DNA from: an uncultured bacterium
GTDB lineage: Bacteria; AUK180
Assembly: GCA_937863565.1 (NCBI GenBank)
Contig: CALMGJ010000031.1
Span: 62,001 to 106,952 of the forward strand
DNA length: 44,952 nucleotides
Direction: 5' to 3'
Shown here: piece after piece, positions 14,456 to 40,744 of the stretch
How the letters are laid out: every line of letters starts with the position of its first letter
Numbering within the stretch: the first letter of the stretch is position 1
The notes under the pieces: model-generated
Seen by the model: the letters and a program-made list of their open reading frames with translations, nothing else
What the model was told of the DNA's origin: nothing
Databases searched by the model: none
Translations under genes and position numbers: made by a program

Positions 14456-14928
14456 TTTTTCATCCTTTTCCCTAATGCTTCGGCTGCGCTCAGCATGGCC
14501 TCCTCGATCTTTTTATATCCCGTGCACCTGCAAAGATTGCCGGAAAGAGCCCTGCGTATGCCGGCCGGGGAGACTACATCATTGTTCTTAAGATAGTGAT
14601 GACCACTTACGATGAAACCGGGAGTGCAGTATCCGCATTGCACCGCTCCCCTTTCTATGAATGCCTTCTGAAGAGAGCTTAAGCCCTGTTCAGGAGTGAT
14701 ACCTTCGATCGTTTCTACGGAAGCCCCTTCTATCGCAAAGGCAGATATAATGCATGAAGCTGCAGGAAGACCGTTCAAAAGGACCGTACAGGCGCCGCAT
14801 ACGCCCTCTCCGCATCCTTTTTTGGTCCCGGTCAGACCGAAGCGGTCGCGTAACACCTCCAGAAGGGTCTCATGCCCTTCGATCTCGCATTCCATGTTCT
14901 TTCCGTTCACATTAAGATGCAGTTTCAT
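14452..14928 (-). CDS. Molybdenum hydroxylase 2Fe-2S subunit (CoxS family)
   Basis: 'GCGEGVCGACTV', 'QCGYCTPG', 'GNLCRCTGY'. Confidence 0.95.
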   Translation of the reverse strand: MKLHLNVNGKNMECEIEGHETLLEVLRDRFGLTGTKKGCGEGVCGACTVLLNGLPAASCIISAFAIEGASVETIEGITPEQGLSSLQKAFIERGAVQCGYCTPGFIVSGHHYLKNNDVVSPAGIRRALSGNLCRCTGYKKIEEAMLSAAEALGKRMKK

Positions 14929-15698
14929 TTCTTCTTCTCCCTAAGGTCCCTGCCGTCCTTGCCGAAGTATCTCTTCTCGATCTGCGATGCGATGGATAGA
15001 GCTACCTCTGCAGGCTCGTTTCCACTTATATCCAGGCCGGCCGGCGCATAAACGCATGAAGGGACCTTTATACCCTTCTTCACGATATTCTCTCTCATCA
15101 CTTTGAACTTCCTCGCACTTGATACTACGGCAATATAACGGGGTGTTCTCAAGTTCTTCAGTGCCCAGAAAAGGGCTTTCTCGTCCTCTTCATGACTGTG
15201 CGTAGCTATCACGGCATATGCGTTTCCGGGAAGGCCTTTTTTGATATCATCGTACTTCTTAACGGCAATATAATTATCCTGCTGGAGCGTAATTCTTTTA
15301 TCGAACATGCGGACATCATAGGAAAGCCCCTCAAGCAGGCCTTTCAATGCCTGGTTTATATGTCCGGCGCCGAAAAGCAGTACCGATGCCTTTGTGATGT
15401 TCCTGAAAAGGAACACCTTTGCATAACCGCCGCATATGCCGTCCGAGCCCTTTTTCCCAAGAAGGTCCGCTGTGATCATCCGGGATACCGCTCCCGATCT
15501 GAGCATATCTCTTGCCTCGTCTATTGTTTTTTTCTCTATGGCGCCGCCGCCGATGGATCCCACGATATCGTCCGGGGTCACTGCCATGATCCGCCCCGCG
15601 GAAGCGGGAACAGAACCTTTCGATTCCGTTATCACGGCAAGCACGAATGAGTTGACGGCACGCGCCGCAAGGGCCTCAAGAACCTTTCTTGTATTCAT
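14925..15698 (-). CDS. xdhC: XdhC/CoxF-family molybdenum cofactor insertion accessory protein
   Basis: 'GSVP...G', 'GSIGGGAIE', 'GICGG', 'LFGAGH', 'THSHEED', 'APAGLDI....PAEVALSI'. Confidence 0.9.
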   Translation of the reverse strand: MNTRKVLEALAARAVNSFVLAVITESKGSVPASAGRIMAVTPDDIVGSIGGGAIEKKTIDEARDMLRSGAVSRMITADLLGKKGSDGICGGYAKVFLFRNITKASVLLFGAGHINQALKGLLEGLSYDVRMFDKRITLQQDNYIAVKKYDDIKKGLPGNAYAVIATHSHEEDEKALFWALKNLRTPRYIAVVSSARKFKVMRENIVKKGIKVPSCVYAPAGLDISGNEPAEVALSIASQIEKRYFGKDGRDLREKKK

Positions 15699-16263
15699 CG
15701 ATATACTTTTCCAACTCCTCTTTCGTATTCACGCCGATCTTCGTGAAATGGTCATCTGTTTCTGTCAGGACCGTTTCGGGGGTATGGACCAGGACATTTA
15801 CGCCGCTATTATGTATCTCGAATATTTCCATCCATTTTCTGCGGGGGAAATAAACAGGATGCCCGATAGAACCCTTATAAGATGCGGCTATGATCTTCCG
15901 CGGCTCTTCCAGAGCGCGGTCCACGATCCCCCGGACCGTTCCGGTATCTATGAGCGGCATATCCGCCGGCCATACTATAAGCCCGTCATAGTCCTCGTTG
16001 AGAAGTTCTGCAATGGCCAGTTTTATTGAATGGATCTGTCCCTCTTCCGGATAGGAGTTCTTTATCATACGGATATCCGAAGGAACGAAATCGGCTATCT
16101 CATCGAAATAGTAAACGAGGAGCGTATCGAGTTTGAGAATCTCGAGTTTTTCGAAGATGATCTCAAGAAAGGTTTTTCCCTCGATCTTCTGCAGGACCTT
16201 GATGTCACCGAACCTTTCAGATCTTCCCGCAGCAAGGACCGCGGCTGCAATTTTCATTACCAT
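15676..16263 (-). CDS. mocA: Molybdenum cofactor cytidylyltransferase
   Basis: 'VLAAGRSERFG..K', 'N..PEEGQ..SI', 'ADMPLI', 'GHPVYF'; adjacent to the xdhC-family gene. Confidence 0.85.
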   Translation of the reverse strand: MVMKIAAAVLAAGRSERFGDIKVLQKIEGKTFLEIIFEKLEILKLDTLLVYYFDEIADFVPSDIRMIKNSYPEEGQIHSIKLAIAELLNEDYDGLIVWPADMPLIDTGTVRGIVDRALEEPRKIIAASYKGSIGHPVYFPRRKWMEIFEIHNSGVNVLVHTPETVLTETDDHFTKIGVNTKEELEKYIDEYKKGS

Positions 16264-16349: not shown

Positions 16350-18737
16350 CTAGTCGTTGCAGAGTAATGAGAGGACATCAACCATATGGTACGGTTTGAG
16401 AAGCAAATCGAAACCGAGAGTTCTTCCCATCTCCTCTATCTCGTCGTCAAAATAACCGCTCGTCAGGATTATCTTGACATCTTTGTCTCTTTTCTGGAAA
16501 TCCTTAAGAAGGAAGATCACGCTTCCATCCGATAATTGAAGGTCGGACAGGATCACATCAATATGATTTCCGGAGAAAACCTTTTCCGCTTCCTTGTTAT
16601 CAGTCGCATCGTATACCTTCATGAAGTAATTATCAAAAAATTTAATTAAAGAATCTCTGAGTATTCTCTCGTCTTCGATGATGAGAATTGTACGGTGCTT
16701 GAGTTTTGAGTAACTGCTTGGGGTAAAGCGCACTTTTTCCTGTTTTGGAGTATAATCGATCGCGGGAATGTATATATCGAATACAGTCCCTTTTGCAGTG
16801 GTCTCGAACTCTATGCTCCCGCCGTGGGCTTTAACTGCCTGGCTGACTATAGACAGTCCCAGACCGGTTCCCTTTCCGGGTTCCTTAGTCGTGAAGAAAG
16901 GTTGGAATATTTTCTCTCTGTGCGTTTCGTGAATTCCGCTTCCCGTATCGGAAACGGATAATTTTAAAAAATCGGTCCCGGAATTCCTGAAATCGGAGAT
17001 ATATTCAAGCAATATTTCTACGGTGCCTTTTCCTGAGATTGCATCCCTCGCATTCACCACCAGATTGAGAAGTATCTGCTCTATCGAATTTTTATCTCCG
17101 TTTATGTAATTCTTCTCTTCGAGCAGTTTTGTTTTCAATTCGATATCGTTTCCCATTAGCTTTCTGAGGATTTCGGTAAATTCGAGCACCGTTTCGTTCA
17201 TCTCGAGAGGTTTCAGTTGAAAAGGAGATCTTCTCGAGAAACCCAAGATCTTGTTGATAAGATTTTTTTCGAATCTAAGTGCATTACGCAGCTCATGTAA
17301 ATTAATTTGGATATCGGAGTCGGGGGGAGTCTGTATTTCGATCATATCGAGATTGATCTGTATCAGAAAGAGAAGATTATTGAAGTCGTGGGCGATATTC
17401 GTTGCCAGTCTGTCCAGTTCCGATGATCTTCCGAGAAAAGCCACTTCCTCTTTCAATATCGAAGCTTCATTTCTCAATATCTCGGGTTCCGTAATATCCT
17501 CTATGAAAAAAACATATTCTTTTCCCTGATAGATGGAATCGTAAATAATCCCGGATGCGGAATAGAATTTCGGACTGTGGGGAGTTTCGATCCTGTATTT
17601 CATCTCATAGATATTTTCCTTCTCGGCGAAAAGCCTTTTCACTACGAAGTGTTTGTCGGAGAAGGGTTCTATCTCGTGTACAGGATACATGAACATCTGT
17701 TCCCAGTTCAAGCCGGGGAAGATTTTTTCAATCATTCTATTGAAAAAAATGACATTCCCGGTCTCATTCAGGATAATTATCCCGAGAGGGCTCGTTTCAA
17801 GCACTTTTTTAAAGATGGTCTTTTCCGTGTTGAACAGCGCAAGAAGATGCCTGCTCCGGGCTTCTTCGGACAGCAGATCCCTTTTCTGTTTTTCCACCTT
17901 CCTTTTAAGAAGTATAAGAACCGGGACCGCAAAAAGGATGAAGATGACGCTTAATATTATATGAGTCCGAATGAATACATACTGCCCCATATTCACTGCG
18001 GAGTACCATTTGTTCAGGATCCTGTAATAGACCGATTTACCATTTTTTTTCATTTTGCCTAGAGCATTGCTGAGTTTTTCGGATAACGCTCGATTCTCTC
18101 CTTTCTTTACCGCAAAATACAGCGGGACAGGCGGCAATATGAGAGAGGTTCTGAAAAAACCGGTAGCGCCGTTCTCCTTGATTACCCCGTATAGGCTGTT
18201 CATTAGCGCATAATCGACCGTTCTCCCGAGACAGCGTATCACATGGTTATGATCCCGGCATAGAATTATATGGGCATCTACAGAATGTGCTTTCAACGCC
18301 GTCAGAAGATAAGGATAGAAAAAACCTTTTTCTCTCACTGCAATCTTCTTTCCGGCCAGATCTCTGAAATCGGAAATAATCTCCCTTTTTGTATAGATGA
18401 AACCCCACATCTTCAGGATGGGTTCATTGGGGAATTCGGCCATCTTTACATACGTATCATTTTGGACCGTATCGAGAAGGAGATCTACCTCCTGCGGCCA
18501 GATGCCTTTTAGAATCGAGGAGCTGTCCACTTGGACGAATATTATTTTAAGTTTTTCCTTTTTCGCAATAGCGGTTATAAGATCTACAGCTAAACCGTTG
18601 AAATGTCCGTTCTCAACAAAACAGATAGGATAATTCTCCGTAACGCCAACCCGAAAGACCCTATCGGTTAAAGCATCAGCGCTGATGCCGCTTAGAAAAA
18701 TTGTGCAGCAAAGTACGGATATGATAAACCGGGGCAT
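16350..18737 (-). CDS. Hybrid sensor histidine kinase: periplasmic solute-binding domain, TM, PAS, HisKA/HATPase, receiver
   Basis: SBP_bac_3-like 'RVGVTENYP.....G...GL.VDL', 'AHDFNNLL', 'NLVVNARDA', '[15 protein letters not shown]', C-terminal REC; start placed at ATG 18737 because ATG 18782 lies inside the predicted promoter. Confidence 0.9.
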
Positions 18738-18762
18738 ATTTTTTATGCATCCATTAAAGTAT

Positions 18763-18792
18763 AGTATATTCTCTTTCTGCATATAAAGTCAA
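18763..18792 (-). promoter_or_regulatory. Sigma-70-type promoter for the hybrid kinase
   Basis: TTGACT-18 nt-TATACT. Confidence 0.6.
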
Positions 18793-18932
18793 TCCACAGA
18801 TGTTATTTAATATGTGAAATTAGTGATTTTTATTACATAATATCGCTTCAGATCGGCAAAAGAAGTAAAATATCTTTTTTTCATATGTCATTAATAAACG
18901 GGAAACGGTTTTTAGGGTTGCATGATCTCTTA

Positions 18933-19658
18933 TTAAAATACCGCAAAAAGATTTACGGCTATATGTATGAAGAATATCAGATACGGATTTCTCCGTAGAG
19001 AATAGATAAAAAACATCATAAGATGGAAAACAAAGAAGATGCCGACACTGATGAGCCCTTTCTGGAAATTGAGAAGCCCTCCGGCAATGGAATAAATGAT
19101 TAGGGGGACGGGGAGTAGTGCCCGGGAGAGTTTTTTATAGAGCAATTCATAACTGAAAACCCTTGTCAGCTCTGCTTTCAGTGCGGTTATCACGGCTATA
19201 AAGGCTGCGGGAAGAGGGAATACTGAAAGCACTTCCCTGCTGTACGGGGGTTGATAAACCGTCAAATATCTGTTTATCAGAAATCTCGTCCAAAGGGACA
19301 GTTCTATGAATAAAATCAGCGTAACCAGTCCGATTAAAAGGTTAATGAGAGTATCGAGCAGGATCTTCCTTTCGTTTCCCGGATGAAAAGGAGCAAATCT
19401 GTCTATACGGAAGAAGACGGAAGGCGATATTTTCCCGATATATTTCGCGATAAAATAGTAGTAGATCGAGATCAGTATGACCTCGGACATTATCACGCAG
19501 CAGTATAAACTGAGGAGCATATTATCGAGATAGTACTTGAATGAGAGGAATGGTGCTTTGAAAATCATCATGGAAAGAAAAAGAAAAACGGGGAAAAGCG
19601 GCAGAACGATCAGAATGATCTCTCCGTAAGATCTAATCCCCCTCCAGAATTTGCTCAA
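18933..19658 (-). CDS. Multi-pass membrane protein, degenerate CPBP/Abi intramembrane protease-like
   Basis: About 7-8 TM segments; 'KAELTR' where EExxR is expected, C-terminal 'IHIAVN' (HxxxN); TTG start uncertain. Confidence 0.55.
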   Translation of the reverse strand: MSKFWRGIRSYGEIILIVLPLFPVFLFLSMMIFKAPFLSFKYYLDNMLLSLYCCVIMSEVILISIYYYFIAKYIGKISPSVFFRIDRFAPFHPGNERKILLDTLINLLIGLVTLILFIELSLWTRFLINRYLTVYQPPYSREVLSVFPLPAAFIAVITALKAELTRVFSYELLYKKLSRALLPVPLIIYSIAGGLLNFQKGLISVGIFFVFHLMMFFIYSLRRNPYLIFFIHIAVNLFAVF

Positions 19659-19665
19659 TTAGCTC

Positions 19666-20298
19666 TCAGTCGTACGGTCTGATCCACTTTTCCACTATTG
19701 GAGCAGGAGTATCGGAAATGATGAAAATGCCGTCGAGACAAAGCCACACTCCGAGGAAAAACCATCTTGTGCACTGCGGACAGGCATAGAGGATCATATC
19801 GGAGACATTGTTCGAGACAAGGATGTGAAGGGCTTCGAGAAAGAAACCGATCACTTTGTAGTTGAGGACCCATTTTTCGGTAAACGGAATGAGGTCGTTC
19901 TCTATTTTTTCCAGAACAGCTTCCTTAGAGGCTGTTCCATACATTTTCTTCAATGCATCAAGTTTCCCGAGGAATGCAGAACGGACCGCATCGTTCTTCA
20001 GTTCGTAACCGCTGGTTATCGTGTTGACGATGATGCCGATGTATTCCTCGGTCGTAACGGGAATGGTGTACTGAGCTGATGTCGAAAGCGTTTCCGCGGC
20101 GTTTACCGGTTCCTCTACTAACCGTGCGTATTTATAACTGTATTCCGCATTGCTGTTCTTCACCCCCGCCGTGCTGACAGCCTGAATACCGGTAGCCGCA
20201 GGGGCTGGTGGGAAGAATGTGGTCTCATTTTCCTGAGAACACCCAGCGTATAAAAGGCATAACAACGCACCCAAGATCAGCATCCTACTTCCTCTCAT
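19666..20298 (-). CDS. Hypothetical lipoprotein
   Basis: Lipobox LYAG-C, strong SD AGGAGG; CPQC motif near the C-terminus. Confidence 0.75.
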   Translation of the reverse strand: MRGSRMLILGALLCLLYAGCSQENETTFFPPAPAATGIQAVSTAGVKNSNAEYSYKYARLVEEPVNAAETLSTSAQYTIPVTTEEYIGIIVNTITSGYELKNDAVRSAFLGKLDALKKMYGTASKEAVLEKIENDLIPFTEKWVLNYKVIGFFLEALHILVSNNVSDMILYACPQCTRWFFLGVWLCLDGIFIISDTPAPIVEKWIRPYD

Positions 20299-20319
20299 AT
20301 CGGACCTCCTAATAGAAAA

Positions 20320-20679
20320 CTATTTTTTTTGCTTCGTTCTTTCAAGCAGATCGACCAGTTTTTCGATCCGGAAAGGCTTCATCAGAAGATAATCGGGTTG
20401 AAACGTCTGTGCTTTGAGCTTGTCAGCTTCATCCAGATATCCGGTAATAGCGATCACGGGGACTCCGGAAAATCCTTCTTTTATCCTGCAGATAAGTGTC
20501 TGTCCGCTCATTTGCGGCATCATGAGATCGGTTATCACGATATCGAATTTTGTTTCTTTCATCAAGCCAAGTGCGGTCTTTCCATTGGGAGCGCAGACGA
20601 TCTCGTATTTAAGAAAACTCAACAGTCTGGAAAGACTGTCGCGCATTAAAGGATCATCTTCAACCAGAAGTATTTTCAT
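20320..20679 (-). CDS. Single-domain response regulator (CheY-like)
   Basis: 'ILLVEDD', 'VITDLMMPQMSG', 'ITGY', 'KPF'. Confidence 0.95.
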   Translation of the reverse strand: MKILLVEDDPLMRDSLSRLLSFLKYEIVCAPNGKTALGLMKETKFDIVITDLMMPQMSGQTLICRIKEGFSGVPVIAITGYLDEADKLKAQTFQPDYLLMKPFRIEKLVDLLERTKQKK

Positions 20680-21664
20680 CTTCCTTTCTGAAAGTGATTA
20701 TACAGTTCGTACCGATACCTTCCTCTGAATCGATTCTTATGGAGGCGTCGTTTTTAGCCAGCAGAAATTGTACTATCGTCAAACCGAGACCGGCTCCGTG
20801 ATCCTTCTGTTTCGTCGAGAAGAAAGGATTGAACAGTTTCACGATGTCGTTCTGTTTGATCCCTTTACCGTTGTCCTTAATTGTGAGAACCACGGTTTCT
20901 TTTCCTCCTTCCACCGATAGAATTATCTTCCCTTTCTCCTTTTCGATCGATTCACAGGCATTCTCGAGAAGCACAAAAAGCGCTTCCTGAAAATCGGTCC
21001 TGTTTACAACAATGTGTTCTTCCGAAATCCCTTTTGCAAGTTCGATCCCGACATGGGGGAATTTGTATTTTCTTACATTCTCAAAAAAATCGATGACCGT
21101 AATACACTCCTTTTCCAGTCCGCATTTCTCCTTTTCTCCGCTGCCTTTGGCGAAATGAGAGATCTTCTTTATTATGTTGCTTGCGCGCATCACTGTCTCA
21201 AGGATATTGTTCAATATCTTCTCCTTCTCCTTGTCGGTTTCGTTCAACTGAAGGAATTGAGTATAGGAAGATATTATGGCTAGAGGATTGTTTATCTCGT
21301 GAGCGAGACCGCGGGTCATTAAACCCAGAAAGGTGAATTTTTCCTTGTAGGAAACATCCCGGACATATCTGTTTACCCAATCCTGAAATGCGGTCTCAAT
21401 AATGGAATAGACCGTTTTTACACGTTCTATATCAATGTCGGATACATACTTGAAAATGTACGCCTTATTTCTGCTGAATGCCATAAGGTATTCTTTTCCC
21501 CCAGCATAGATGCCTTCCCTGAAGGATGCGAAATCTTCGGAAGAGTGAATGATACTGAGCAGTATGAGTTCGAAATCATCTGGAGAATCGACCTGCCTCT
21601 CTTTCGCGGAAGCAAGAAGTTCGTCTTTCGACATCAGTAATGTCCACTTGATGTCTTTCTTCAT
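20660..21664 (-). CDS. Cytoplasmic histidine kinase (NtrB-like)
   Basis: 'LAHEINNPL', 'LLENACE', 'DNGKGI', 'FFSTK...GAGLGL'; no TM segment. Confidence 0.9.
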   Translation of the reverse strand: MKKDIKWTLLMSKDELLASAKERQVDSPDDFELILLSIIHSSEDFASFREGIYAGGKEYLMAFSRNKAYIFKYVSDIDIERVKTVYSIIETAFQDWVNRYVRDVSYKEKFTFLGLMTRGLAHEINNPLAIISSYTQFLQLNETDKEKEKILNNILETVMRASNIIKKISHFAKGSGEKEKCGLEKECITVIDFFENVRKYKFPHVGIELAKGISEEHIVVNRTDFQEALFVLLENACESIEKEKGKIILSVEGGKETVVLTIKDNGKGIKQNDIVKLFNPFFSTKQKDHGAGLGLTIVQFLLAKNDASIRIDSEEGIGTNCIITFRKEDENTSG

Positions 21665-21670
21665 ATTGTT

Positions 21671-21699
21671 ATTTTACGATATTTTTTTTTATTTCCCAA
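21671..21699 (-). promoter_or_regulatory. Sigma-70-type promoter 6 nt upstream of the kinase ATG (probably leaderless)
   Basis: TTGGGA-17 nt-TAAAAT-aacaat-ATG; no SD. Confidence 0.6.
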
Positions 21700-21748
21700 A
21701 TATTTTAGCCAAATTTCGGCAATAGAACCGGTTTGTATTTTCACTATT

Positions 21749-21768
21749 ATGTTTACCCCGTGAAACAT
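21749..21768. promoter_or_regulatory. Putative enhancer (bEBP binding site) ATGT-N12-ACAT, copy 1
   Basis: ATGTTTACCCCGTGAAACAT, centred about 60 bp upstream of the -24 GG of a sigma-54-like promoter. Confidence 0.6.
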
Positions 21769-21816
21769 GTTTACGGAAGCAAAAACGATCGCTTCGTATA
21801 TCAGACTATTTATTGC

Positions 21817-21832
21817 TGGTACATAAAATGCT
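21817..21832 (+). promoter_or_regulatory. Sigma-54 (-24/-12) promoter
   Basis: TGGTAC-ATAAA-ATGCT: GG-N10-GC spacing, followed by SD GGAGGTG and ATG 21859. Confidence 0.7.
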
Positions 21833-21858
21833 TTCATTATACCGTACGGAGGTGATAT

Positions 21859-22233
21859 ATGAAAAAATCGTTATTGCTTTCATTGCTGTTGATTCTGATC
21901 GCGGTAGTCAGCAGTAATAAGATCACAGTGGATTCAGTAATCCTTGAAAATAAAGGACCGGTTAATTATCTCTGCGTCAAATTCTGCGAAAATAACGATA
22001 TCCGGCATCTTTATGTCTTTATAGAAAAAGCCGGAGCGCTGTGTATATTACAGGAGATTGTCGTCGATGAGAAGGAAATGCTTTCCGAAATGCATATCCC
22101 GATAGGAAAGGGCCCGGTCGATCTTGTTATCGTCGGATTCTCTATTGACGAGTCAGCGGTTCCAGATATTCGTCGTGAAACCTCACAATATTTCTCTTCA
22201 AACGAGTATAGTGTCCTTATCGATCTCCGGTAG
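21859..22233 (+). CDS. Small hypothetical exported protein
   Basis: Signal peptide MKKSLLLSLLLILIAVVSS, strong SD, beta-rich mature region. Confidence 0.8.
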   Translation: MKKSLLLSLLLILIAVVSSNKITVDSVILENKGPVNYLCVKFCENNDIRHLYVFIEKAGALCILQEIVVDEKEMLSEMHIPIGKGPVDLVIVGFSIDESAVPDIRRETSQYFSSNEYSVLIDLR

Positions 22234-22309
22234 CATGTGGATAAAAAGACCATCTTCCGGTATTGTTTCCATTATTTGGCTTTCAAAACCATTCGTATAT
22301 TTTTCTGAT

Positions 22310-22330
22310 CGTATCCGGATACGTTTTTTT
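22310..22330 (+). terminator. Possible weak intrinsic terminator
   Basis: Perfect palindrome CGTATCCGGATACG followed by T7, between convergent genes. Confidence 0.4.
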
Positions 22331-23675
22331 AAGTAAGTTCTACATTCTTCTTGATTTTGAGGGTTTCGATTTTCTGATAGATCGTTTTTCTGCTCAACCC
22401 CGATAAACGGGAGGCTTTATTGATATTCCATCCTGTATGATCCAGAAGATTCGTAAAGTAATTGTATTCGAATGTCCTTATGATGTTCGTTTTTATCTCG
22501 TTGAAATTACCAATCTCCCTGTTAAGGGAAATATCTTTCTCCATTATGCCGTTGAAAAAATCGCCTGGAATATCCTCTTCATTTAAAATGCCATCTTTAT
22601 CCAGAAGAACCGCTCTCTCTATAAAATGCTTAAGTTCTCTTATGTTTCCGGGCCATTTGTGCTTATTGAGCATTTTTATGAAATCGAGGGATGTTTTCAT
22701 TGCCGGTTTTTCGGAGCTTATAAAATGTTTTGCGAGAATCTCTATGTCTTCAGGACGCTCTCTCAATGGGGGAAGATAGATTGGGAAAATATTTATCCTG
22801 TAATACAGATCGCTTCTGAATCTGCCTTTTTCGACTAGCGTTTTTAAATTTTTATTCGTGGCGAAGATGAACCGTATATCCGCCTGGATCACTTTTGTAT
22901 CGCCTACCCGGGAGAATTTTGAGTTTTCAAGAAAACGAAGCAATTTAACCTGAATATCCTCCGGAAGCTCCCCAATCTCGTCTATGAACAAAGTACCTCC
23001 GTCAACTGCATGAAACAGTCCGTCCTTGTCCTCGTATGCCCCTGTAAAAGCGCCTTTCTTATAACCGAAGAATTCGGATTCGATCAGTTCATGCGGAATG
23101 GAGACGCAGTTGACGGCAAAGAAAGGCTTTTTACTCCTTTCACTGTTTTCATGTATATAACCTGCCACGACCTCCTTCCCGGTCCCGGTATCTCCAAGAA
23201 GAAGGACGGGGATATGGCTTGGGGCGCTTTTCTTGGCAAGTTCCATGGTATTGATGAAAGCGGGACTCTCGCCGATCAGCTTTGCTTTTTGCTTAACCGG
23301 TTTTTCTTTTTTCTCCGCTTTTTCCAGAAGGGAATTCACTCTCTTTAGAAGCAGACTCAGGTCGAACGGTTTCGTAATAAAATCGTTTGCACCAAGTTTC
23401 AGGCATTCAACCGCTTCGTCTATGCTCCCGAATGCGGTCATTACGATTACGGGCATGTTCATCCCCGCTTCTCTTAAAACCCTTATCATTTCTTTGCCGT
23501 CGGTTTCCGGCATTCTGAGGTCCGTGATGATCAGATCCGGCTTTACCCTTGATGCGATCTCGAGTCCCTCCGCCCCATCCTTTGCCCCGAATACTTCGTA
23601 ACCTTCCTTTTTCATCATTCTTAACAACACATCAAGCATAAATTTTTCATCATCCGCTATGAGCATCTTAGACAT
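22329..23675 (-). CDS. Sigma-54-dependent response regulator (NtrC/AtoC-type bEBP: REC, AAA+, Fis-type HTH)
   Basis: REC 'LIITDLRMP', Walker A GDTGTGKE, intact GAFTGA, 'LFIDEIGE', 'WPGNIREL', HTH 'NINKASRLSGLSRKTIYQK'; start ATG 23675 after GGAGG. Confidence 0.95.
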   Translation of the reverse strand: MSKMLIADDEKFMLDVLLRMMKKEGYEVFGAKDGAEGLEIASRVKPDLIITDLRMPETDGKEMIRVLREAGMNMPVIVMTAFGSIDEAVECLKLGANDFITKPFDLSLLLKRVNSLLEKAEKKEKPVKQKAKLIGESPAFINTMELAKKSAPSHIPVLLLGDTGTGKEVVAGYIHENSERSKKPFFAVNCVSIPHELIESEFFGYKKGAFTGAYEDKDGLFHAVDGGTLFIDEIGELPEDIQVKLLRFLENSKFSRVGDTKVIQADIRFIFATNKNLKTLVEKGRFRSDLYYRINIFPIYLPPLRERPEDIEILAKHFISSEKPAMKTSLDFIKMLNKHKWPGNIRELKHFIERAVLLDKDGILNEEDIPGDFFNGIMEKDISLNREIGNFNEIKTNIIRTFEYNYFTNLLDHTGWNINKASRLSGLSRKTIYQKIETLKIKKNVELT

Positions 23676-25005
23676 AAAGATATCCCTCCACAAGCATACT
23701 CAATTCGAAAATATCCTGCGACAGCAGTTTCTCGTTTATTCCCTGTTCGATGAGAAATTTCCTGTCCCATTCCTTTTTTTCCCGCGTCGTATGCTCGAGA
23801 TAGTCCGCCAGGAATACGATCTGTTCTGGTAGTTTCTTGTTCCTTTTGGCATGATGGTTAAGCACAATATCGATAATCTCAGCATACTTACGTGAATGGA
23901 GAAGAATTAACGCACCAAGTTCGTCATGATCATCGCCGTTACTCGGTCGCTTGAGGAGAAGTTTACCGATATCATGCAACCGGGCGGCTTTCTCGATAGT
24001 TCCTGAGATAGTATTATCCAGAGAGAGTTTTCCGCAGATGCCGGCGGCAATTTTCGCAGTGTTCCGTGAGTGATCCTTCACCCCGGTCTTTTTTTCATAT
24101 AGATCGATCGTTTTGAACAAACGGTTCTCCGATGTACTGCCGGAAAAACCCGTAAAACCGAATTCCTTTAAAAAGTCCAGATAGAACTCCACGCAGGTTC
24201 TGATGGCTTTTTGTCTTCCTCTTCCGAGATAAGGAAGAGAATTGAAGTATTGGACGTATGTCGCCTCTAAATCCCCTTTTTGGGCACGGCAAACGAATTT
24301 ATACTCGGGAGCTCTTTCGAAAGCGTTCATATCGCACATATAGAAATCGCAATCCTCCATTACCGATAAACCCTCCGTTGCCGGCAGTGTAGCTCCTTCG
24401 TACTCCTTTTTGATAATCAGATCGCCTTCATTGCCGTATATTTTTAGTTTACCATCTTCTTTGAGAAATATCAAGCACATCTGATTGTCCAGCTTCATAT
24501 TGTCGATGAATTGCTTCATTATGCTTCCTGTTGCACTGGCAAGCAGTATCTCATAATCGAATGTTAGAGATAGAAATGTCGGAATTATCTCTTCGGGACA
24601 TTCATTCATTCTAAGGTATTCCAGCATAGTGTTCATCTTCCTGTCTATGAAGGAGAAAACCTGTTCACTGTCATGAGCAACACTGCCGTAAAAAACGGAG
24701 GATTTAATAAACTCCGATCTATTCATCACGTAAATATCATCCCTGGCATAATGAACCTTCTCTTTACAGGTGATATTGCCGTCAACCACAATAATCACAT
24801 CGCTGTCTGCATTCTTTGAGTTTTTTATTTTCTCGAACAAAACAGCTTCCGGATATTTCAGGAAGAACAGGAATCCATTCCCTTCCTCAAGTGCGGACAG
24901 CGAGAAATCGACAAGATCGCAGCGCATACCCTGATCTTCCCGGGTTTTCAGAAGTTCTTCGTTGAGGTATTCCCTGAATACTTTCCATACGATTGGGCCG
25001 TTCAT
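23668..25005 (-). CDS. HD-domain metal-dependent phosphohydrolase with unknown N-terminal region
   Basis: 'DHS...A', 'LHDIGK', 'H...GA', 'NHH', 'LAD'; lacks the GYP loop; start ATG 25005 overlapping the upstream stop. Confidence 0.8.
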   Translation of the reverse strand: MNGPIVWKVFREYLNEELLKTREDQGMRCDLVDFSLSALEEGNGFLFFLKYPEAVLFEKIKNSKNADSDVIIVVDGNITCKEKVHYARDDIYVMNRSEFIKSSVFYGSVAHDSEQVFSFIDRKMNTMLEYLRMNECPEEIIPTFLSLTFDYEILLASATGSIMKQFIDNMKLDNQMCLIFLKEDGKLKIYGNEGDLIIKKEYEGATLPATEGLSVMEDCDFYMCDMNAFERAPEYKFVCRAQKGDLEATYVQYFNSLPYLGRGRQKAIRTCVEFYLDFLKEFGFTGFSGSTSENRLFKTIDLYEKKTGVKDHSRNTAKIAAGICGKLSLDNTISGTIEKAARLHDIGKLLLKRPSNGDDHDELGALILLHSRKYAEIIDIVLNHHAKRNKKLPEQIVFLADYLEHTTREKKEWDRKFLIEQGINEKLLSQDIFELSMLVEGYLYV

Positions 25006-25364
25006 GCTACCGCTCGTAGAGCTTCCGAAAGAAGTCTTTCCGGATCGAAAGGTTTCGTAAAATGCATAATAATGCCCAGCATGTGCGAGAACGCTTTGAG
25101 ATCCTTGCTCCCGTCCGCAGTAATGATGAATACGGGAACATTCTTTAAACCTTCGATGCATCGGATCCGGGCTACTGCAGAATACCCGTCCAAACCCGGC
25201 AACATGACATCCATGACGATCAGGTCCGGAATCAGACCGCGGGCCATCTCAACCGCTTCAAGACCGGTCCGTGCTTCATGAATCTCGAAATCTTCACTGA
25301 AAGTGAGAGCCAGAATCACACGGATGTTCATGTTGTCGTCAACAATCAGTATCTTTTTTTTCAT
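25002..25364 (-). CDS. Single-domain response regulator
   Basis: 'ILIVDD', 'LIVMDVMLPGLDG', 'ITA', 'KPF'. Confidence 0.95.
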   Translation of the reverse strand: MKKKILIVDDNMNIRVILALTFSEDFEIHEARTGLEAVEMARGLIPDLIVMDVMLPGLDGYSAVARIRCIEGLKNVPVFIITADGSKDLKAFSHMLGIIMHFTKPFDPERLLSEALRAVA

Positions 25365-26811
25365 ATATCTCCTCCGGAAGCGTTATTCTGAAAACGCTTC
25401 CTTCACCCACTTTGCTTTCCAATTCCACTTTCCCGCCCAGTAGTTGAAGATTGTACTTGACAATATAAAGTCCCATGCCTGCTCCGGCAATACTGTGCGC
25501 CAGATTGTCCAGTCGGCTGAATTTCGCGAAAATTTTCTCCTTCTCTTCCGGAGCGATCCCGCACCCTGTATCAGCGATCTCGATGATCACTGTATCGTTG
25601 ACTAGGCGGCTTGATATTTCTATTTTACCGCAGTCAGTATTGTATTTGATCGCATTTGAGATCAGGTTCGAAAATACTTGTCTCAGCAGCATCTCGTCGG
25701 TCACTATGCTGTCAGCATCCAGATTTATTCTCATTTCAATGTATTTTTCCTTCATCGAAGGCAGATACATGTTCTCGAGATCACCGAAAAATTCACCGAG
25801 ACGTATTTTTCTGAGTTTCAGAGTCGGTTTTTTTTCCGAAGCGGCGCGGCCCACGTAGATCAGATTATCCAAAAGCTCCAAAAGATATCCGGCATCTTTC
25901 ACGGCGTTTCTTATGAAATGCTTTTGGATATCGGTAAGATATCCCAGACGTCCCATAAGAAGAAGCTTCATTCCCGATATCAGAGAAGTCAACGGAGTCC
26001 TAATTTCGTGAGAGATACCTGAAATGAAAGTGGTTTTAATGTCATCCAGTCTTTTATATTCCGTAATATCCTCGAAAACTACTGATATCATCTCAACTCC
26101 GTTGAGATCAATGCGCTCGCTTTTTATCCTGTAAATTTTATCGCCGTAATTCACAGGTCCGTTCTTGTTTTCGGCAAGCATCGAGAGTATTTCGCTGAAA
26201 CATACTCTCTCCCTTTCCGGCTGAAGATTCCCCAGAATTTTCAAAGCATGGGCATTTACAAAAACAACAATACCTGAAGAAGTGCCCAGGATCATCGGTA
26301 AAGAGGTTTTTCCAATAAATTCAGAAAGTGTAAGGTGCATGGTTCTTGAACCACTTTTTTCCGGTTCCGGGTAATCGCTGTTTTTAAATTCACAAAGTTT
26401 TTTCTCCAGAACAAATGAAATAAAATATTCAAAAACGGCACTTTCGGGAACTCCCGATTCAGAAGTGGTATATGCCCATATAATATCTCCGCTTTTTATA
26501 GTAAGAACGCGATCGGGAAGGAATCCGGATATATTTGTAATGGAGCCGTTCTTCATTTCCCGGTACACTGAGAAGGTTGCAGCATCATTGTTTTTAATAT
26601 AGAGAACAAACGACTTATCCCCCAGTACTTCATTCATATAACAGATACACTTCTCTGCCAAGTCCGTTATACGTGTCGTATTGAGAAGTGATCTGGCCAA
26701 GTTGAAGTATGCAATGAAAGCCAGGTTCTTCTCCGCCTCTCTGACTCCCAGTTCCGCTATCGCTGTTGAGATTATGGCATTATTCAAGTTTCCGCGATCT
26801 TCAGAGTGCAC
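25339..26811 (-). CDS. Cytoplasmic sensor histidine kinase with PAS-like region
   Basis: 'SHEIRTPLT', 'NLISNAIKY', 'DTGCGI', 'GAGMGL'; GTG start after GGAGG. Confidence 0.9.
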   Translation of the reverse strand: MHSEDRGNLNNAIISTAIAELGVREAEKNLAFIAYFNLARSLLNTTRITDLAEKCICYMNEVLGDKSFVLYIKNNDAATFSVYREMKNGSITNISGFLPDRVLTIKSGDIIWAYTTSESGVPESAVFEYFISFVLEKKLCEFKNSDYPEPEKSGSRTMHLTLSEFIGKTSLPMILGTSSGIVVFVNAHALKILGNLQPERERVCFSEILSMLAENKNGPVNYGDKIYRIKSERIDLNGVEMISVVFEDITEYKRLDDIKTTFISGISHEIRTPLTSLISGMKLLLMGRLGYLTDIQKHFIRNAVKDAGYLLELLDNLIYVGRAASEKKPTLKLRKIRLGEFFGDLENMYLPSMKEKYIEMRINLDADSIVTDEMLLRQVFSNLISNAIKYNTDCGKIEISSRLVNDTVIIEIADTGCGIAPEEKEKIFAKFSRLDNLAHSIAGAGMGLYIVKYNLQLLGGKVELESKVGEGSVFRITLPEEIYEKKDTDC

Positions 26812-27132
26812 TTAAAACCTCCAGATTATAAGACTCGCTCCGATCCCGAGAAGCGAATTCTCCCTTCTGAGACCTTCAAAGCCGGGATTAGTTGCAAATT
26901 CCCATATCAATGCTCCTATGATCCCGACAAAAGCCGAATACAAACGAGCTTCTTCACTTGTGAAGCCGGAAGCCTTGAAATAATCATAGGATGCCGAGCG
27001 TAGGCCTACAGATAATGAGAATGTTATCGTAATCCTGTTCAAATCCAGCGACTCCCAGGTGAAATCCTCAGGAAGATCGCTGCATGTGATTGAAATGCAT
27101 AAAACGAATACTGCCAGAAGACATACTTTCAT
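26812..27132 (-). CDS. Small exported/membrane protein, distantly YfiM/VanZ-like
   Basis: Signal peptide, 'GALIWE....G.......LLGIG', ends in WRF; SD GGAGG. Confidence 0.6.
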   Translation of the reverse strand: MKVCLLAVFVLCISITCSDLPEDFTWESLDLNRITITFSLSVGLRSASYDYFKASGFTSEEARLYSAFVGIIGALIWEFATNPGFEGLRRENSLLGIGASLIIWRF

Positions 27133-27503
27133 TTTACCCTCCTGTTACCGCTCAGTACATCAATGAAACATACGGAAACGCAGATGCCGAAAACATTGGC
27201 CCTTATATCTGTTTTTTGATAACTGAAATCCAAGTATCGTTCTTTGATATATCCTGCACAGAATACAATAAATGAACTTGCAATTATACGGAAATATCTG
27301 TCTTTAAAAATCTTGATATTGAATTTTCCGCCTGTTTCTAGAAATACTTTATTCAAAGCAAGTGTTGCAGTCGAAGAGATCAACATATGGTCATATGGAT
27401 TGAATCGAGAACTGAACTCATCCCTGAAGAATCCGTTCGCTTCAGTAATTCTGCCTGCGGTGAGTAAAATAATAACAATAAGCATAATGATTTTAAATTT
27501 CAT
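27129..27503 (-). CDS. YfiM/DUF2279-like small membrane protein
   Basis: Signal peptide, 'DH', 'GYIKE..D......DI.AN..G' motif. Confidence 0.6.
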   Translation of the reverse strand: MKFKIIMLIVIILLTAGRITEANGFFRDEFSSRFNPYDHMLISSTATLALNKVFLETGGKFNIKIFKDRYFRIIASSFIVFCAGYIKERYLDFSYQKTDIRANVFGICVSVCFIDVLSGNRRVK

Positions 27504-27525
27504 AATTTAACCTCGCGTAAATGTT

Positions 27526-27541
27526 TCCAAGAAATATGCCC
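27526..27541 (-). promoter_or_regulatory. Sigma-54-like promoter (non-consensus -12) for the YfiM-like/kinase/bEBP operon
   Basis: GGGCAT-ATTTC-TTGGA: correct spacing, GG instead of GC at -12. Confidence 0.45.
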
Positions 27542-27601
27542 GTTTCATTATGTCCTATAATAAATGATATACGCCATCATTTGATCTTCTGCGGCAGTAA
27601 T

Positions 27602-27621
27602 ATGTTACATAAAGGAAACAT
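27602..27621. promoter_or_regulatory. Putative enhancer ATGT-N12-ACAT, copy 2
   Basis: ATGTTACATAAAGGAAACAT, centred about 72 bp upstream of the -24 GG. Confidence 0.55.
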
Positions 27622-27651
27622 CGGAAAAATGAATTTAAGGTTTTTAAAATG

Positions 27652-27687
27652 AAAAAAAAGAAAAGGAGGGGGATTGAAACCCCCTCC
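27652..27687 (-). terminator. Intrinsic terminator after the 27717-28190 gene
   Basis: GGAGGGGG-tttcaat-CCCCCTCC followed by TTTTCTTTTTTTT on the minus strand. Confidence 0.9.
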
Positions 27688-27716
27688 AAGGTACTGATCC
27701 AGTTATTTATTGAAGA

Positions 27717-28190
27717 TCAGAAAGTGAATGTAACGGAATTGGATATTGCGAGAACTTCACCTTTGACATTATAATAAATGATTTTATAGGAAACGAGATC
27801 TCCTGCTACGAGACCGCTTCTTGTGAAATTCATCGAGCAATACTCCAGCCTAGAACGATTTCTCATCGGGACCATCGTTTCGACTTCCCACGAAAGAGCA
27901 TTGTATCTAGAGATAATTACCGCATAGACTGCTTTATCAAACCCCAGAAAGTGAAGGGTTACAGCTATACTGTAAGAAGCCGGATAGGAGACCGAAGTTC
28001 CGGTCAACCCGTTGAAAGTGATAAGATCATTTGATTTCTCCCGGGCCTTCCCGCCTGAAGGGCCGGTTTCACCAGCATCATAACCACTCTGACCGTCATA
28101 GTCATTGTAATCGGGAAGCGTGGGGCTGTAACCTGCAAGCAGGTTTCCTACAAGAAACAAACAAGCAATGAACAGAATCGTTCTTCTCAT
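27717..28190 (-). CDS. Hypothetical secreted protein (acidic Gly/Tyr-rich N-terminus, beta-rich C-terminal domain)
   Basis: Signal peptide MRRTILFIACLFLVGNLLA, SD AGGAGGTG before ATG 28190, own promoter and terminator. Confidence 0.85.
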   Translation of the reverse strand: MRRTILFIACLFLVGNLLAGYSPTLPDYNDYDGQSGYDAGETGPSGGKAREKSNDLITFNGLTGTSVSYPASYSIAVTLHFLGFDKAVYAVIISRYNALSWEVETMVPMRNRSRLEYCSMNFTRSGLVAGDLVSYKIIYYNVKGEVLAISNSVTFTF

Positions 28191-28229
28191 ATTCACCTCC
28201 TAAGTGTGTTTAAAGAACGATTCATTATT

Positions 28230-28245
28230 TGCTGATTTCGTGCCA
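28230..28245 (-). promoter_or_regulatory. Sigma-54 (-24/-12) promoter
   Basis: TGGCAC-GAAAT-CAGCA: perfect -24 element and GG-N10-GC spacing. Confidence 0.75.
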
Positions 28246-28318
28246 AATAGAAACGGCTGTGTATTTCTTTGTATATTCGCTATTAAAGTGTTCCGGAGTA
28301 TCGAATCGTATAAGTAAT

Positions 28319-28338
28319 ATGTAAATTGAGGGTTACAT
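28319..28338. promoter_or_regulatory. Putative enhancer ATGT-N12-ACAT, copy 3
   Basis: ATGTAAATTGAGGGTTACAT, centred about 85 bp upstream of the -24 GG. Confidence 0.6.
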
Positions 28339-28360: not shown

Positions 28361-29509
28361 TCAAGGGGCTTTACTATCGTTAAAAAGCATTATCTCCGAA
28401 AGTGAGAATGATGAACGCCAATTGTCGGGAATGTCTTTCTCTGCCCAGTGAGCGTCTATGAATTTGAGCAGGATGAGCCGCGCTGTCGCATCTTCCTTCC
28501 TGAATATCTGAGGGGCGGTACGATCAATAAAGAAGCAGCACCTTCTTTCATTATACGTAATGCATTGGGGTATAGGGCCTTCAAGATCGAGAAGGGCATA
28601 TAGGCGCAGGCCGCTTTCATCCTCAGACGGGGAAATGTAAATTTCTATCCGTTTGGCAGCATTGTTGCCTCCGCCCGTCCCCCGCATATCCGTATACCTG
28701 TTGAAGATGACGACGGTATTGAATTTCTTCTCTTCCTTGAGATCGATGAGGATCTCGGGTTTTTTATAATATGCGACGCTTTTCCATGTTGTGGCAGGCT
28801 GCCCGTCTATTATCGCGTATGCATCTTTCCCGGATTCGCCTTCCGAAACGCTCTTTATAACGGCGCCGTACATTTCATTGGAACCGTAACTTTTCGGGGG
28901 TTTGAAACGGAACTTTTTATCTTTCGGGAACAGCTTTCTGATCTTCTTATCGAGGATTCTGTTCTCCTTTGCTCCCCTTTCACTTATCTCGGTAAGGGTC
29001 TTTAGCGGTACCGCAAAATACCGGACCCCGTTCTCTTCATAGATATTCTTTCCGGGTTCCTTGCCCGGATCGAATGCCGAAGCGGGAAATGCCGCGCATT
29101 CCTTGGTTTTATGGATAATGAACCTGTACATGCCTCCGGAAGCGTCAAAGGACCTGAAAACGGCTTTGTTCCTGTACTCTTCCTTCCCGGATATCTCGTA
29201 AAGATCTTTGTCTTCCTTGTAGATCTCTGCGGCGAAAATGATATATTCGTATTTCTTCAGGTCCGCGAGCATCCCGTCGGAAATGTCCCCGGTGATCAAA
29301 TAGAATTCCTTCTCTTCAAGATAGCCCTTGATGATTTTCTTCGTCCCGAATCTCAGGACGGTCCTGCCGCCCGTGACCGAGGCATCGGTAAAGGCTCCGC
29401 ATATAATATCGCTGTGCGATTCGATAAGCCGGTTCAAATTCATCTTATCCTCCGCTGAAAAATGACCTGCCAGACAGAATATAAGGAAAATTATTAATGC
29501 GATCCTCAT
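28361..29509 (-). CDS. Exported protein with C-terminal discoidin (F5/8 type C) domain
   Basis: Signal peptide MRIALIIFLIFCLAGHFSA; 'AIIDG...TTW.S......I.IDL.....N.V.I.NR', 'SLSEIMLF'; the track's TTG at 29545 coincides with the -35 element. Confidence 0.75.
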   Translation of the reverse strand: MRIALIIFLIFCLAGHFSAEDKMNLNRLIESHSDIICGAFTDASVTGGRTVLRFGTKKIIKGYLEEKEFYLITGDISDGMLADLKKYEYIIFAAEIYKEDKDLYEISGKEEYRNKAVFRSFDASGGMYRFIIHKTKECAAFPASAFDPGKEPGKNIYEENGVRYFAVPLKTLTEISERGAKENRILDKKIRKLFPKDKKFRFKPPKSYGSNEMYGAVIKSVSEGESGKDAYAIIDGQPATTWKSVAYYKKPEILIDLKEEKKFNTVVIFNRYTDMRGTGGGNNAAKRIEIYISPSEDESGLRLYALLDLEGPIPQCITYNERRCCFFIDRTAPQIFRKEDATARLILLKFIDAHWAEKDIPDNWRSSFSLSEIMLFNDSKAP

Positions 29510-29516
29510 TTTCTTT

Positions 29517-29545
29517 ATTATACCGTTTTTCCCCCGTTTATTCAA
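29517..29545 (-). promoter_or_regulatory. Sigma-70-type promoter 7 nt upstream of ATG 29509 (probably leaderless)
   Basis: TTGAAT-17 nt-TATAAT-aaagaaa-ATG. Confidence 0.75.
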
Positions 29546-40743: not shown

Positions 40744-40744
40744 C

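Follow-up and report, generated by a model that had tools for sequence, protein, structure and literature searches.

The subject of this report is a block of signalling genes and orphan genes in the genome (2.27 Mb in 38 contigs, 95.5% complete) of an uncultured bacterium. It occupies positions 16350-28338 of the window, i.e., of the whole stretch of 44,952 nucleotides that was analysed (C31:62001-106952), and the coordinates below are window positions unless a contig is named. On balance the block is probably a self-contained, lineage-specific sigma-54 signalling module, in which an NtrC-type activator would serve its own operon and the genes of two small exported proteins. All its long open reading frames (ORFs) are on the minus strand except one. 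Pfam and NCBIfam scans, together with the translations, bear out the gene content that an original prediction, made from the letters alone, had given: a membrane hybrid kinase, two soluble kinases, two receivers, an HD protein, an NtrC-type activator and six orphans, here O1 to O6 (Table 1). The orphans have no credible Pfam or NCBIfam family, the rows obtained at loose E-value cut-offs being at chance level. The Pfam scan likewise agrees that no metabolic enzyme is encoded within 16350-28338. PADLOC reported no defence family in the block; the cross-hits of its HD domain to the HD regions of Cas3 and Cas10 were dismissed as generic HD similarity.

Table 1. Genes, promoter elements, dyads and terminator of the block, in window coordinates
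Feature	Position	Strand	Description
HKhyb	16350-18782	-	Membrane hybrid kinase: periplasmic SBP_bac_3, weak PAS, kinase core, receiver (Pfam)
O1	18933-19658	-	Membrane protein, 6 hydrophobic segments; at the end of the HK334 operon
O2	19666-20298	-	Predicted lipoprotein, lipobox LYAGC; Cys-rich hydrophobic C-terminus
REC119	20320-20679	-	Stand-alone receiver; Response_reg 7.8e-25
HK334	20660-21664	-	Soluble kinase, first gene of its operon; HisKA + HATPase_c, no hydrophobic segment
Dyad 1	21750-21767		TGT-N12-ACA in the gap shared by the divergent genes HK334 and O3; ends 50 nt before the O3 GG
O3 promoter	21817-21832	+	-24/-12 type, TGGTAC-N5-ATGCT (TGGTACATAAAATGCT); 9/12 consensus
O3	21859-22233	+	Small secreted protein, single Ig-like beta-sandwich (model); convergent to the activator gene
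bEBP454	22329-23693	-	NtrC-type sigma-54 activator: receiver, AAA+, HTH_8 (Pfam)
HD445	23668-25005	-	HD-domain phosphohydrolase, HD 1.2e-11; lineage-specific N-terminal region of ~280 residues
REC120	25002-25364	-	Stand-alone receiver; Response_reg 4.5e-21; ATGA overlap with the HD gene start
HK490	25339-26811	-	Soluble kinase; HisKA + HATPase_c (Pfam), no hydrophobic segment
O4	26812-27132	-	Small exported/membrane protein, paralogue-like partner of O5 (alignment)
O5	27129-27503	-	Small membrane protein, conserved NPYDH motif (alignments); first gene of its operon
O5-operon element	27526-27541	-	Possible degenerate -24/-12, GGGCAT-N5-TTGG; -12 C replaced
Dyad 2	27603-27620		TGT-N12-ACA upstream of the O5 operon, about 100 nt before the O5 start codon
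Terminator after O6	27665-27687	-	Intrinsic; 8-pair stem (7 G-C), then T run
O6	27717-28190	-	Secreted, monocistronic: signal peptide, Tyr/Asp/Gly-rich linker, fn3/Ig-like beta-sandwich (model)
O6 promoter	28230-28245	-	-24/-12 type, TGGCACG-N4-CAGCA (TGGCACGAAATCAGCA); 10/12 consensus
Dyad 3	28320-28337		TGT-N12-ACA upstream of O6, 75 nt from the GG

A core operon kept across the phylum

Six of the genes, O5-O4-HK490-REC120-HD-bEBP (27503-22329), overlap or abut throughout and constitute one translationally coupled operon. (A longer ORF for the HD protein, reaching 25161, overlaps REC120 and was set aside as an artefact of an upstream in-frame start.) The protein encoded by its last gene, bEBP454, matches Response_reg (3.6e-30), Sigma54_activat (PF00158; 2.2e-66) and HTH_8 (1.2e-8), and its translation has the GAFTGA loop. 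An AAA+ domain with that loop, a receiver together with a Fis-type helix-turn-helix (HTH), a genomic rpoN (366 bits, above its cut-off) and candidate promoters with upstream sites are all present, and by its sequence bEBP454 may be classed with the bacterial enhancer-binding proteins (bEBPs) of the NtrC family. It is one of 10 strong sigma-54 activators in this genome and is 36-39% identical to the other nine. Its HTH (GWNINKASRLSGLSRKTIYQKIE) is nearly invariant in all orthologues from the family and differs in the nine paralogues of this genome.

How widely is such an arrangement shared? The phylum is represented by nine species genomes, seven of them, this one included, in family f1 and two in family f2, and the relatives' loci were located by tblastn and read as ORFs. 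The O5-O4-kinase-activator core is in all nine, with two adjacent matches for O4/O5 in each. Genus g2 has the order O5-O4-HK490-REC120-HD-activator, and in the two f2 genomes O5-O4 is followed by a kinase and an activator (38-41% identity) with neither REC120 nor HD. Orthologues of bEBP454 are in 6/6 family relatives at 54-56% identity; those of HK490, always after O5-O4, are 35-36% identical, those of REC120 50-57%, and the full-length HD protein is in six of the nine genomes. The original prediction had offered co-occurrence of the orphans with these regulators in other genomes as a check on itself, and the check came out in its favour, not just for O4/O5 but also for O3, which has homologues (18-21% identity) in 7/9 genomes, and for O6, with homologues in 5/9. 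The O3 homologues, all in family f1, are usually just past the 3′ end of the activator gene, and neither the O3 nor the O6 family was found in phylum genomes outside f1. The second soluble kinase, HK334, has orthologues in the family genomes G004 and G003 (37-43% identity), beside which are those of REC119 (43-49%). In genus g2 an O6-type gene is divergent from the HK334-REC119 pair, and G004 repeats the order of an O2-like lipoprotein, a small membrane protein and a hybrid kinase.

Beyond these genomes there is little to compare. The O4/O5 family amounts to 5 clusters among 5.8 billion proteins, and for the HD protein a search of 1.84 billion gave 3 representatives at E<=1e-30, the remaining hits covering the HD domain only. 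A contig scan with the single HD protein as query returned no relatives, and one with the HD alignment returned 4 loci only, all in family genomes. Going by these searches, outside the lineage the block's parts are essentially absent.

In two relatives the operon carries an insertion: a 333-residue orphan and a PilT-like T2SSE ATPase are encoded between HK490 and REC120 (L008 11427-13444 in G004; L010 3337-5354 in G001). The insertion is missing from the G006 operon and from that of the present genome, where the 333-residue orphan was not found with that query, and so the pilus link does not extend to this block. Matches to such ATPases do occur elsewhere in the present genome, 3 of them PilT-like and 4 to longer proteins of T2SSE type.

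Dyads and candidate sigma-54 promoters

What might the activator act on? The -12 G of the O3 promoter element is 28 nucleotides (nt) before the ATG, and that of the O6 element 41 nt. A dyad, TGT-N12-ACA, is upstream of each, and a third copy precedes the O5 operon, which suggests, from its position, autoregulation of that operon; there the distance from dyad to GG is 62 nt, as it is before the O5 operons of relatives in which the element is clearer. For the HK334 operon and HKhyb no sigma-54 element scoring at least 9/12 was found.

Throughout the 2.27 Mb the dyad occurs 200 times. Eleven of these are intergenic, a count that is approximate in view of the crude ORF caller, and three of the 11 are those in front of O3, the O5 operon and O6. 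None of the other eight is near another activator gene in this genome. Pairs of dyad and promoter number 14 genome-wide and the two in non-coding DNA are those of O3 and O6.

The comparison with relatives involved 19 upstream regions in the seven family genomes, 16 chosen by O3, O5 or O6 homology and 3 by a motif scan beside the activator gene, these last making the set partly circular. The dyad is in all 19 (17 exact, 2 with one mismatch) and a GG-N10-G element is downstream of it in 18. From the end of the dyad to the GG there are 73-76 nt in 6/6 O6-type genes, 60-62 nt in 6/6 O5 operons, and 50, 61 and 62 nt in O3-type genes, so that the spacing classes are about one helical turn apart. All five relatives that have the relevant region on a contig have the O5-operon dyad in the same place. 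Canonical elements are TGGCAAGGAACTTGC before the O5 operon of G003 and TGGCTCTGAAATTGC before O3 of G005. The element that includes the O6 dyad (TGTGAATTCAAGGTWACA plus TGTAAAG) is kept upstream of the O6 homologues in G004 and G006, and in G001 one letter of its outer triplet is changed. In family f2 the activators do not have an HTH of the bEBP454 type, and the loci have no dyad outside coding sequence.

Could the dyads instead belong to another regulator, whether a repressor or a different Fis-type HTH protein, with the targets of the activator elsewhere? TGT-N12-ACA also figures in papers on the PpsR/CrtJ repressors, at least in the excerpts consulted, and is presumably their binding site; moreover, in genus g2 the O5-operon dyad is just upstream of a TATAAT-like box. 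A foreign regulator would, however, have to account for dyads placed 50-76 nt upstream of a -24/-12 element at phased distances and always adjoining the orthologous activator gene, for the other eight intergenic dyads being near no other activator gene, and for an HTH that co-varies with the presence of the dyad between f1 and f2. In light of this we consider it very unlikely, and bEBP454 the better candidate for the protein that would bind the dyads.

Two relatives have further copies of these elements. G004 has a tandem duplication of an O6-type gene that takes in its promoter and dyad region (L009 12013-13870), the dyad of the upstream copy having 1 mismatch. Within L008 17560-18310, of the same genome, the dyad-promoter pair is also present before an extra receiver gene, with an O3-type gene after it, and before a divergent gene for a secreted orphan of 212 residues; a CheD-like gene comes next. 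The 212-residue protein has no Pfam family; its C-terminal residue is Phe and it is possibly an outer-membrane protein. At a contig end in G005 (L012 ~3330-3513) a direct repeat of ~45 nt, rich in CATTGTCAATT units, is present twice right before a second dyad.

Inputs, outputs and a proposed circuit

Both soluble kinases are co-transcribed with small membrane proteins. Those preceding HK490, O5 and O4, have in common an invariant Glu and an invariant Gly in their alignment, and look like paralogues. They had been labelled YfiM-like, and the label is retained as a lead only: DUF2279 (PF10043) gave no match on either at E<=10, the E. coli control being matched, and it is from the ESM Atlas that some support comes. 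There O5 is at 0.92-0.93 near VanZ-like/DUF2279 clusters, and near phage clusters, with 18% of the members of the VanZ-like cluster beside it (score 0.92) carrying DUF2279, and in the Atlas structure search it is near a DUF2809 cluster (template-modelling score 0.61). Kinship of O5 to VanZ-like, DUF2279 or DUF2809 proteins is accordingly also a lead only. A complex prediction for O5 with O4 (score 0.00, mark 0.32) weighs neither for nor against binding.

The HD protein has as its nearest solved chain a cyclic GMP-AMP phosphodiesterase, 5z7c, with E 7e-5 over the HD region only. Its alignment has an invariant H...HD...H...NHH; a GYP motif following an HHE segment, which we take to define the HD-GYP class, is absent from it and the protein is not placed in that class.

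The other soluble kinase is encoded in the operon HK334-REC119-O2-O1. O2 has a weak homologue in G004 (BLASTP 5e-8, 22% identity). O1 had been called CPBP-like, which likewise is retained as no firmer than a lead: PF02517 aligns with its C-terminal part (profile positions 8-93 of 93, window 18945-19208) below threshold, with E 0.028 and 15.8 bits against a cut-off of 22.4, and motifs that by eye resemble FxxxH and HxxxN are present, these being what we assume the CPBP motifs to be. O1 is possibly a distant CPBP/Abi-like protein, to judge by that alignment. A search of 5.8 billion proteins returned only O1 itself, and it has no similarity to the positionally equivalent membrane protein, of 157 residues, in G004.

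The hybrid kinase next to it, HKhyb, has Pfam matches to SBP_bac_3 (1.8e-13), HATPase_c (4.5e-23) and a receiver (3.4e-11), and its hydrophobic segments at residues 20-38 and 274-292 bracket the solute-binding domain. In the relatives' fetched loci no orthologue of more than ~30% identity was found and, as far as these sequences go, HKhyb is a variable part of the block.

Such variability brings up the thought that two-component genes and small ORFs that have nothing to do with one another, in function either, have come to be neighbours by chance. Two-component genes often cluster, HKhyb has no orthologue in the fetched loci of the relatives and O1 no homologue at all, and in the relatives' genomes the parts can be up to ~18 kb apart or on other contigs. 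Chance would nevertheless leave without explanation the presence of the same dyad at three promoters of the block and at the homologous promoters in six other genomes, the retention of the core gene order phylum-wide, and the recurrence in G004 of the lipoprotein, membrane protein and hybrid kinase order; we regard it as highly improbable.

On what side of the signalling are the orphans? The original prediction had them all as outputs of one unit. For O3 and O6 this stands, each having a candidate sigma-54 promoter with a dyad, a pairing otherwise not seen in the non-coding DNA of the genome. For O1, O2, O4 and O5 it does not: sharing operons with the soluble kinases and having no sigma-54 promoter of their own, these four are put on the input side or within the circuit, where a role as partners of the kinases is likelier than one as outputs. 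The idea of a phosphorelay likewise finds no support. No Hpt domain is present in the proteins of the block, the only 2 PF01627 matches of the genome being on contigs C29 and C36, and a branched multi-kinase network is therefore a safer description than a strict phosphorelay.

O3 has a signal-peptide-like N-terminus and a model with 7 strands (predicted local distance difference test, pLDDT, about 75). Its fold search gave generic immunoglobulin (Ig)/fn3-like matches only, with Z up to 8.7, a range that the tool itself calls common. In the O6 model a disordered linker leads to a sandwich at residues 57-157, with block-mean pLDDT of 71-92, for which Foldseek found fn3 matches (18 chains at E<=0.001) and the Atlas structure search fn3-type ones as well. 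With neither Foldseek nor the Atlas could a functional family be named for these generic Ig/fn3-like sandwiches, and the family alignments of O3 and O6 contain no conserved metal ligands. Judging from their models, each of the two predicted outputs, O3 and O6, is an exported protein with a single Ig/fn3-like domain.

The circuit envisaged is as follows. A signal at the membrane would be passed via O5/O4 to HK490, which would phosphorylate the receiver of the activator and probably REC120 too. The activated bEBP would bind the TGT-N12-ACA dyads by its Fis-type HTH and, so bound, drive the sigma-54 promoters 50-76 nt downstream. In this genome the predicted regulon is O6, O3 and, as positive feedback, the activator's own operon, with O3 and O6 presumably acting in the envelope or outside the cell. 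REC120 and the HD phosphohydrolase may be a second, enzymatic branch of output, confined to family f1, in which REC120 would control HD. The HK334-REC119-O2-O1 operon and the solute-binding hybrid kinase would be auxiliary inputs that travel with the module, O1 and O2 perhaps giving HK334 access to a membrane signal. If all this holds, what is at hand is a compact, testable regulon, in which one activator would serve three promoters by way of one dyad motif, in a phylum without a cultured member, and four orphan families (O3, O6, O4/O5 and the full-length HD protein) have a place as predicted outputs or circuit parts.

Several points weigh against this proposal. In the whole window the consensus TGGCAC-N5-TTGC has 7 matches, with 22 expected, and is not enriched; since the plain consensus is not above chance, the case for sigma-54 rests on position, on pairing with the dyad and on conservation. 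The -12 elements of O6 (CAGC) and O3 (ATGC) are non-canonical, the O5-operon element of this genome is degenerate (TTGG), and the upstream region of O3 in G002 has no -24/-12 element at all. To these may be added the approximate intergenic counts and the partly circular choice of regions already mentioned. The promoters of O3 and O6, and the regulon with them, are predicted from DNA alone, and the protein that binds the dyads might be a DNA-binding protein other than bEBP454. In HK490 a surface on which small membrane proteins might dock is not apparent, which leaves its partnership with O4/O5 putative. Finally, the phylum comprises nine genomes only and the two from f2 are 72-80% complete.

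Is this then a system that has already been described? Not in its parts, as the original prediction had said, but it was wrong as regards the logic: the block is a lineage-specific variant of sigma-54 systems of the ZraPSR and QseEGF kind, its logic known and its parts new. According to the portion of PMC4987338 consulted, zraSR and the gene for ZraP, a small periplasmic protein, have divergent sigma-54 promoters that ZraR drives, and in common with the block there is an NtrC-type activator with a kinase and a regulon of approximately its own operon and a small exported protein with sigma-54 promoters nearby. The block differs in having a soluble kinase, two outputs, and extra receiver and HD genes in the operon, and in that O3 and O6, which have no Pfam family and are modelled as Ig-like beta-sandwiches, do not appear to be accessory proteins of the ZraP/CpxP kind. 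QseE/QseG/QseF (GlrK/GlrR) is a sigma-54 two-component operon in which an exported accessory protein controls the kinase, as set out in the available excerpts of PMC6075780 and PMC12691602. QseEGF has one lipoprotein, placed between the regulator and a kinase in the membrane; the block has two small VanZ-like membrane proteins upstream of a soluble kinase, and its predicted targets, in contrast to those of QseE/G/F, are proteins (no search for small RNA targets was made). The GlrR site, TGTC-N10-GACA, an 18-bp TGT...ACA geometry in the excerpted text of PMC4987338, has the same outer geometry as the TGT-N12-ACA of the block. Abi/CPBP membrane proteins that modulate kinases, Abx1 with CovS and SpdC with WalK (PMC3578759 and PMC5854430, both in the parts consulted), are like O1 in being multi-spanning, with no evident enzymatic role and genetically tied to a kinase; O1 differs by its PF02517 match being below cut-off, by having no detectable homologue and by HK334 having no membrane segment. 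If O4/O5 and O1/O2 are the missing sensor halves, the accessory-protein theme of QseG, Abx1 and SpdC would extend to kinases without a membrane anchor.

In a broader sense the NtrBC-type systems are akin to the block in their receiver-AAA+-HTH_8 architecture, upstream dyads, -24/-12 promoters and a dyad before their own operon, and unlike it in their targets, the block having no nitrogen or metabolic target genes and a predicted regulon of orphan exported proteins. The best NCBIfam scores of bEBP454 are to AtoC (367 bits) and NtrC (365.5 bits), all of them below the equivalog cut-offs; with the ZraR model it scores 302 bits against a cut-off of 760, and with that of GlrR 340.8 against 763. These equivalog scores are far below the cut-offs and the accessory folds are unrelated; membership in the ZraPSR and QseEGF families fails, and kinship of O1 to the Abi/CPBP family is at best a lead. 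One literature search, in which the orphans had no names to search by, found no paper that combines sigma-54 activators, histidine kinases and small secreted outputs.

The likeness to ZraPSR invites a more literal version, namely that O3, O6 or both are periplasmic chaperones or binders that come back to the kinases and switch the system off, in an envelope-stress feedback of the ZraP/CpxP type, and neither form a structure nor serve as a signal. The shared logic of the divergent ZraR-driven promoters, as far as the excerpt of that work goes, is in its favour, as is a regulon that likewise seems to hold only the own operon and small exported proteins; In two genera, besides, an O3 or O6 gene and the HK334 operon are divergent. 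The folds of ZraP and CpxP, however, are helical, and O3 and O6 are predicted beta-sandwiches. Nor do the O3 and O6 alignments have conserved metal-binding residues, and neither gene is accompanied by a kinase whose periplasmic domain is conserved. Such feedback thus seems unlikely, without being negligible. A quite different thought is that O3 and O6 are themselves secreted protein signals, so that sigma-54-controlled export of both Ig-like proteins, their sensing via O4/O5 and O1/O2, and the positive feedback of the activator would close an extracellular loop. That is a long shot. If true, it would be a protein-based, quorum-like or kin-recognition circuit made from families unknown outside a phylum of nine species.

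Composition, descent and surroundings

The block had looked AT-rich by eye, and it is. Its GC content is 42.0%, that of the genome 47.1%; among 1,880 windows as long as the block it is at the 2.2nd percentile (mean 47.2%, sd 2.1). Of the 12 block ORFs that the crude ORF caller kept (REC120 was dropped), 11 rank no higher than the 16th percentile of 1,871 ORFs for GC at third codon positions (GC3), O2 being at the 50th. The adjoining genes are at the 40th (MobA-like) and 53rd (F5/8C) percentiles, and so the edges, at 16350 and 28196, are sharp. A GC and GC3 shift, even a clear one, is not by itself proof of horizontal transfer.

The original prediction had nonetheless thought of a possible horizontal acquisition. 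The block would then be an island that came from a donor of lower GC and has a composition not yet adjusted to the host. Apart from the shift itself and its sharp edges, the wider synteny with the relatives is broken on both sides of the block, the F5/8C gene next to it (28361-29545) is in 0/6 family relatives, and with homologous loci at 29-31% GC in G002 and G003 (L013, L014) and 41-43% in genus g2, against 47% for this genome, one can imagine a donor inside the family. Relatives have the flanks in a rearranged form, and in G004 the genes for XdhC and the transglutaminase-like protein and the cassette are on different contigs. An imported island is, however, hard to reconcile with a core that is present in all nine genomes of the phylum instead of patchily, with O4/O5 and full-length HD families hardly present in large collections beyond these loci, or with orthologues of the activator about as diverged, at 54-56% identity, as the flanking XdhC (47-52%), transglutaminase-like (~52%) and UvrC (50%) proteins. 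As had been noticed by eye, hallmarks of mobility are lacking: scans found no tRNA in the window, no convincing flanking direct or att-like repeat, and no integrase domain among 47 proteins of the window and relatives. In G004, too, part of the homologous signalling region is lower in GC3 than the neighbouring housekeeping genes, so low GC3 may belong to these genes. The core in 9/9 genomes, the divergence similar to that of the flanks and the lack of mobility hallmarks argue for vertical inheritance. From these comparisons the block is probably not a recent import, and the island proposal is quite unlikely; the low GC may be a retained property or one of the gene class, and transfer within the family is conceivable.

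The spread of composition inside the one family, from 29-31% to 47% GC, is wide. Within the present genome four other stretches are of low GC, at C12:~119-136 kb (down to 29%), C9:~135-143 kb, C6:~7-10 kb and C14:~55-63 kb, and the one on C9 contains the sole, weak DUF2279 match of the genome (138199-138432; E 0.0043).

To the left of the block are molybdenum-hydroxylase accessory genes, and to its right an F5/8-type-C protein, two DUF3857/transglutaminase-like proteins and uvrC. The F5/8 type C (discoidin) domain is in a secreted protein whose gene, the one not found in the relatives, directly adjoins the O6 dyad. There are in fact two separate molybdenum-hydroxylase gene sets, of the xanthine-dehydrogenase type, one on either side of the block. 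The left set (13649-16263) encodes FAD-binding, 2Fe-2S, XdhC and MobA-like proteins and no large molybdopterin subunit; the right one (37091-43194) encodes a MoCoBD subunit, 2Fe-2S and FAD-binding proteins and two amidohydrolases. Near the start of the window (1106-5347) is the gene for a protein of 1,413 residues with 12 LVIVD repeats and multiple domains like CarboxypepD_reg and SdrD_B.

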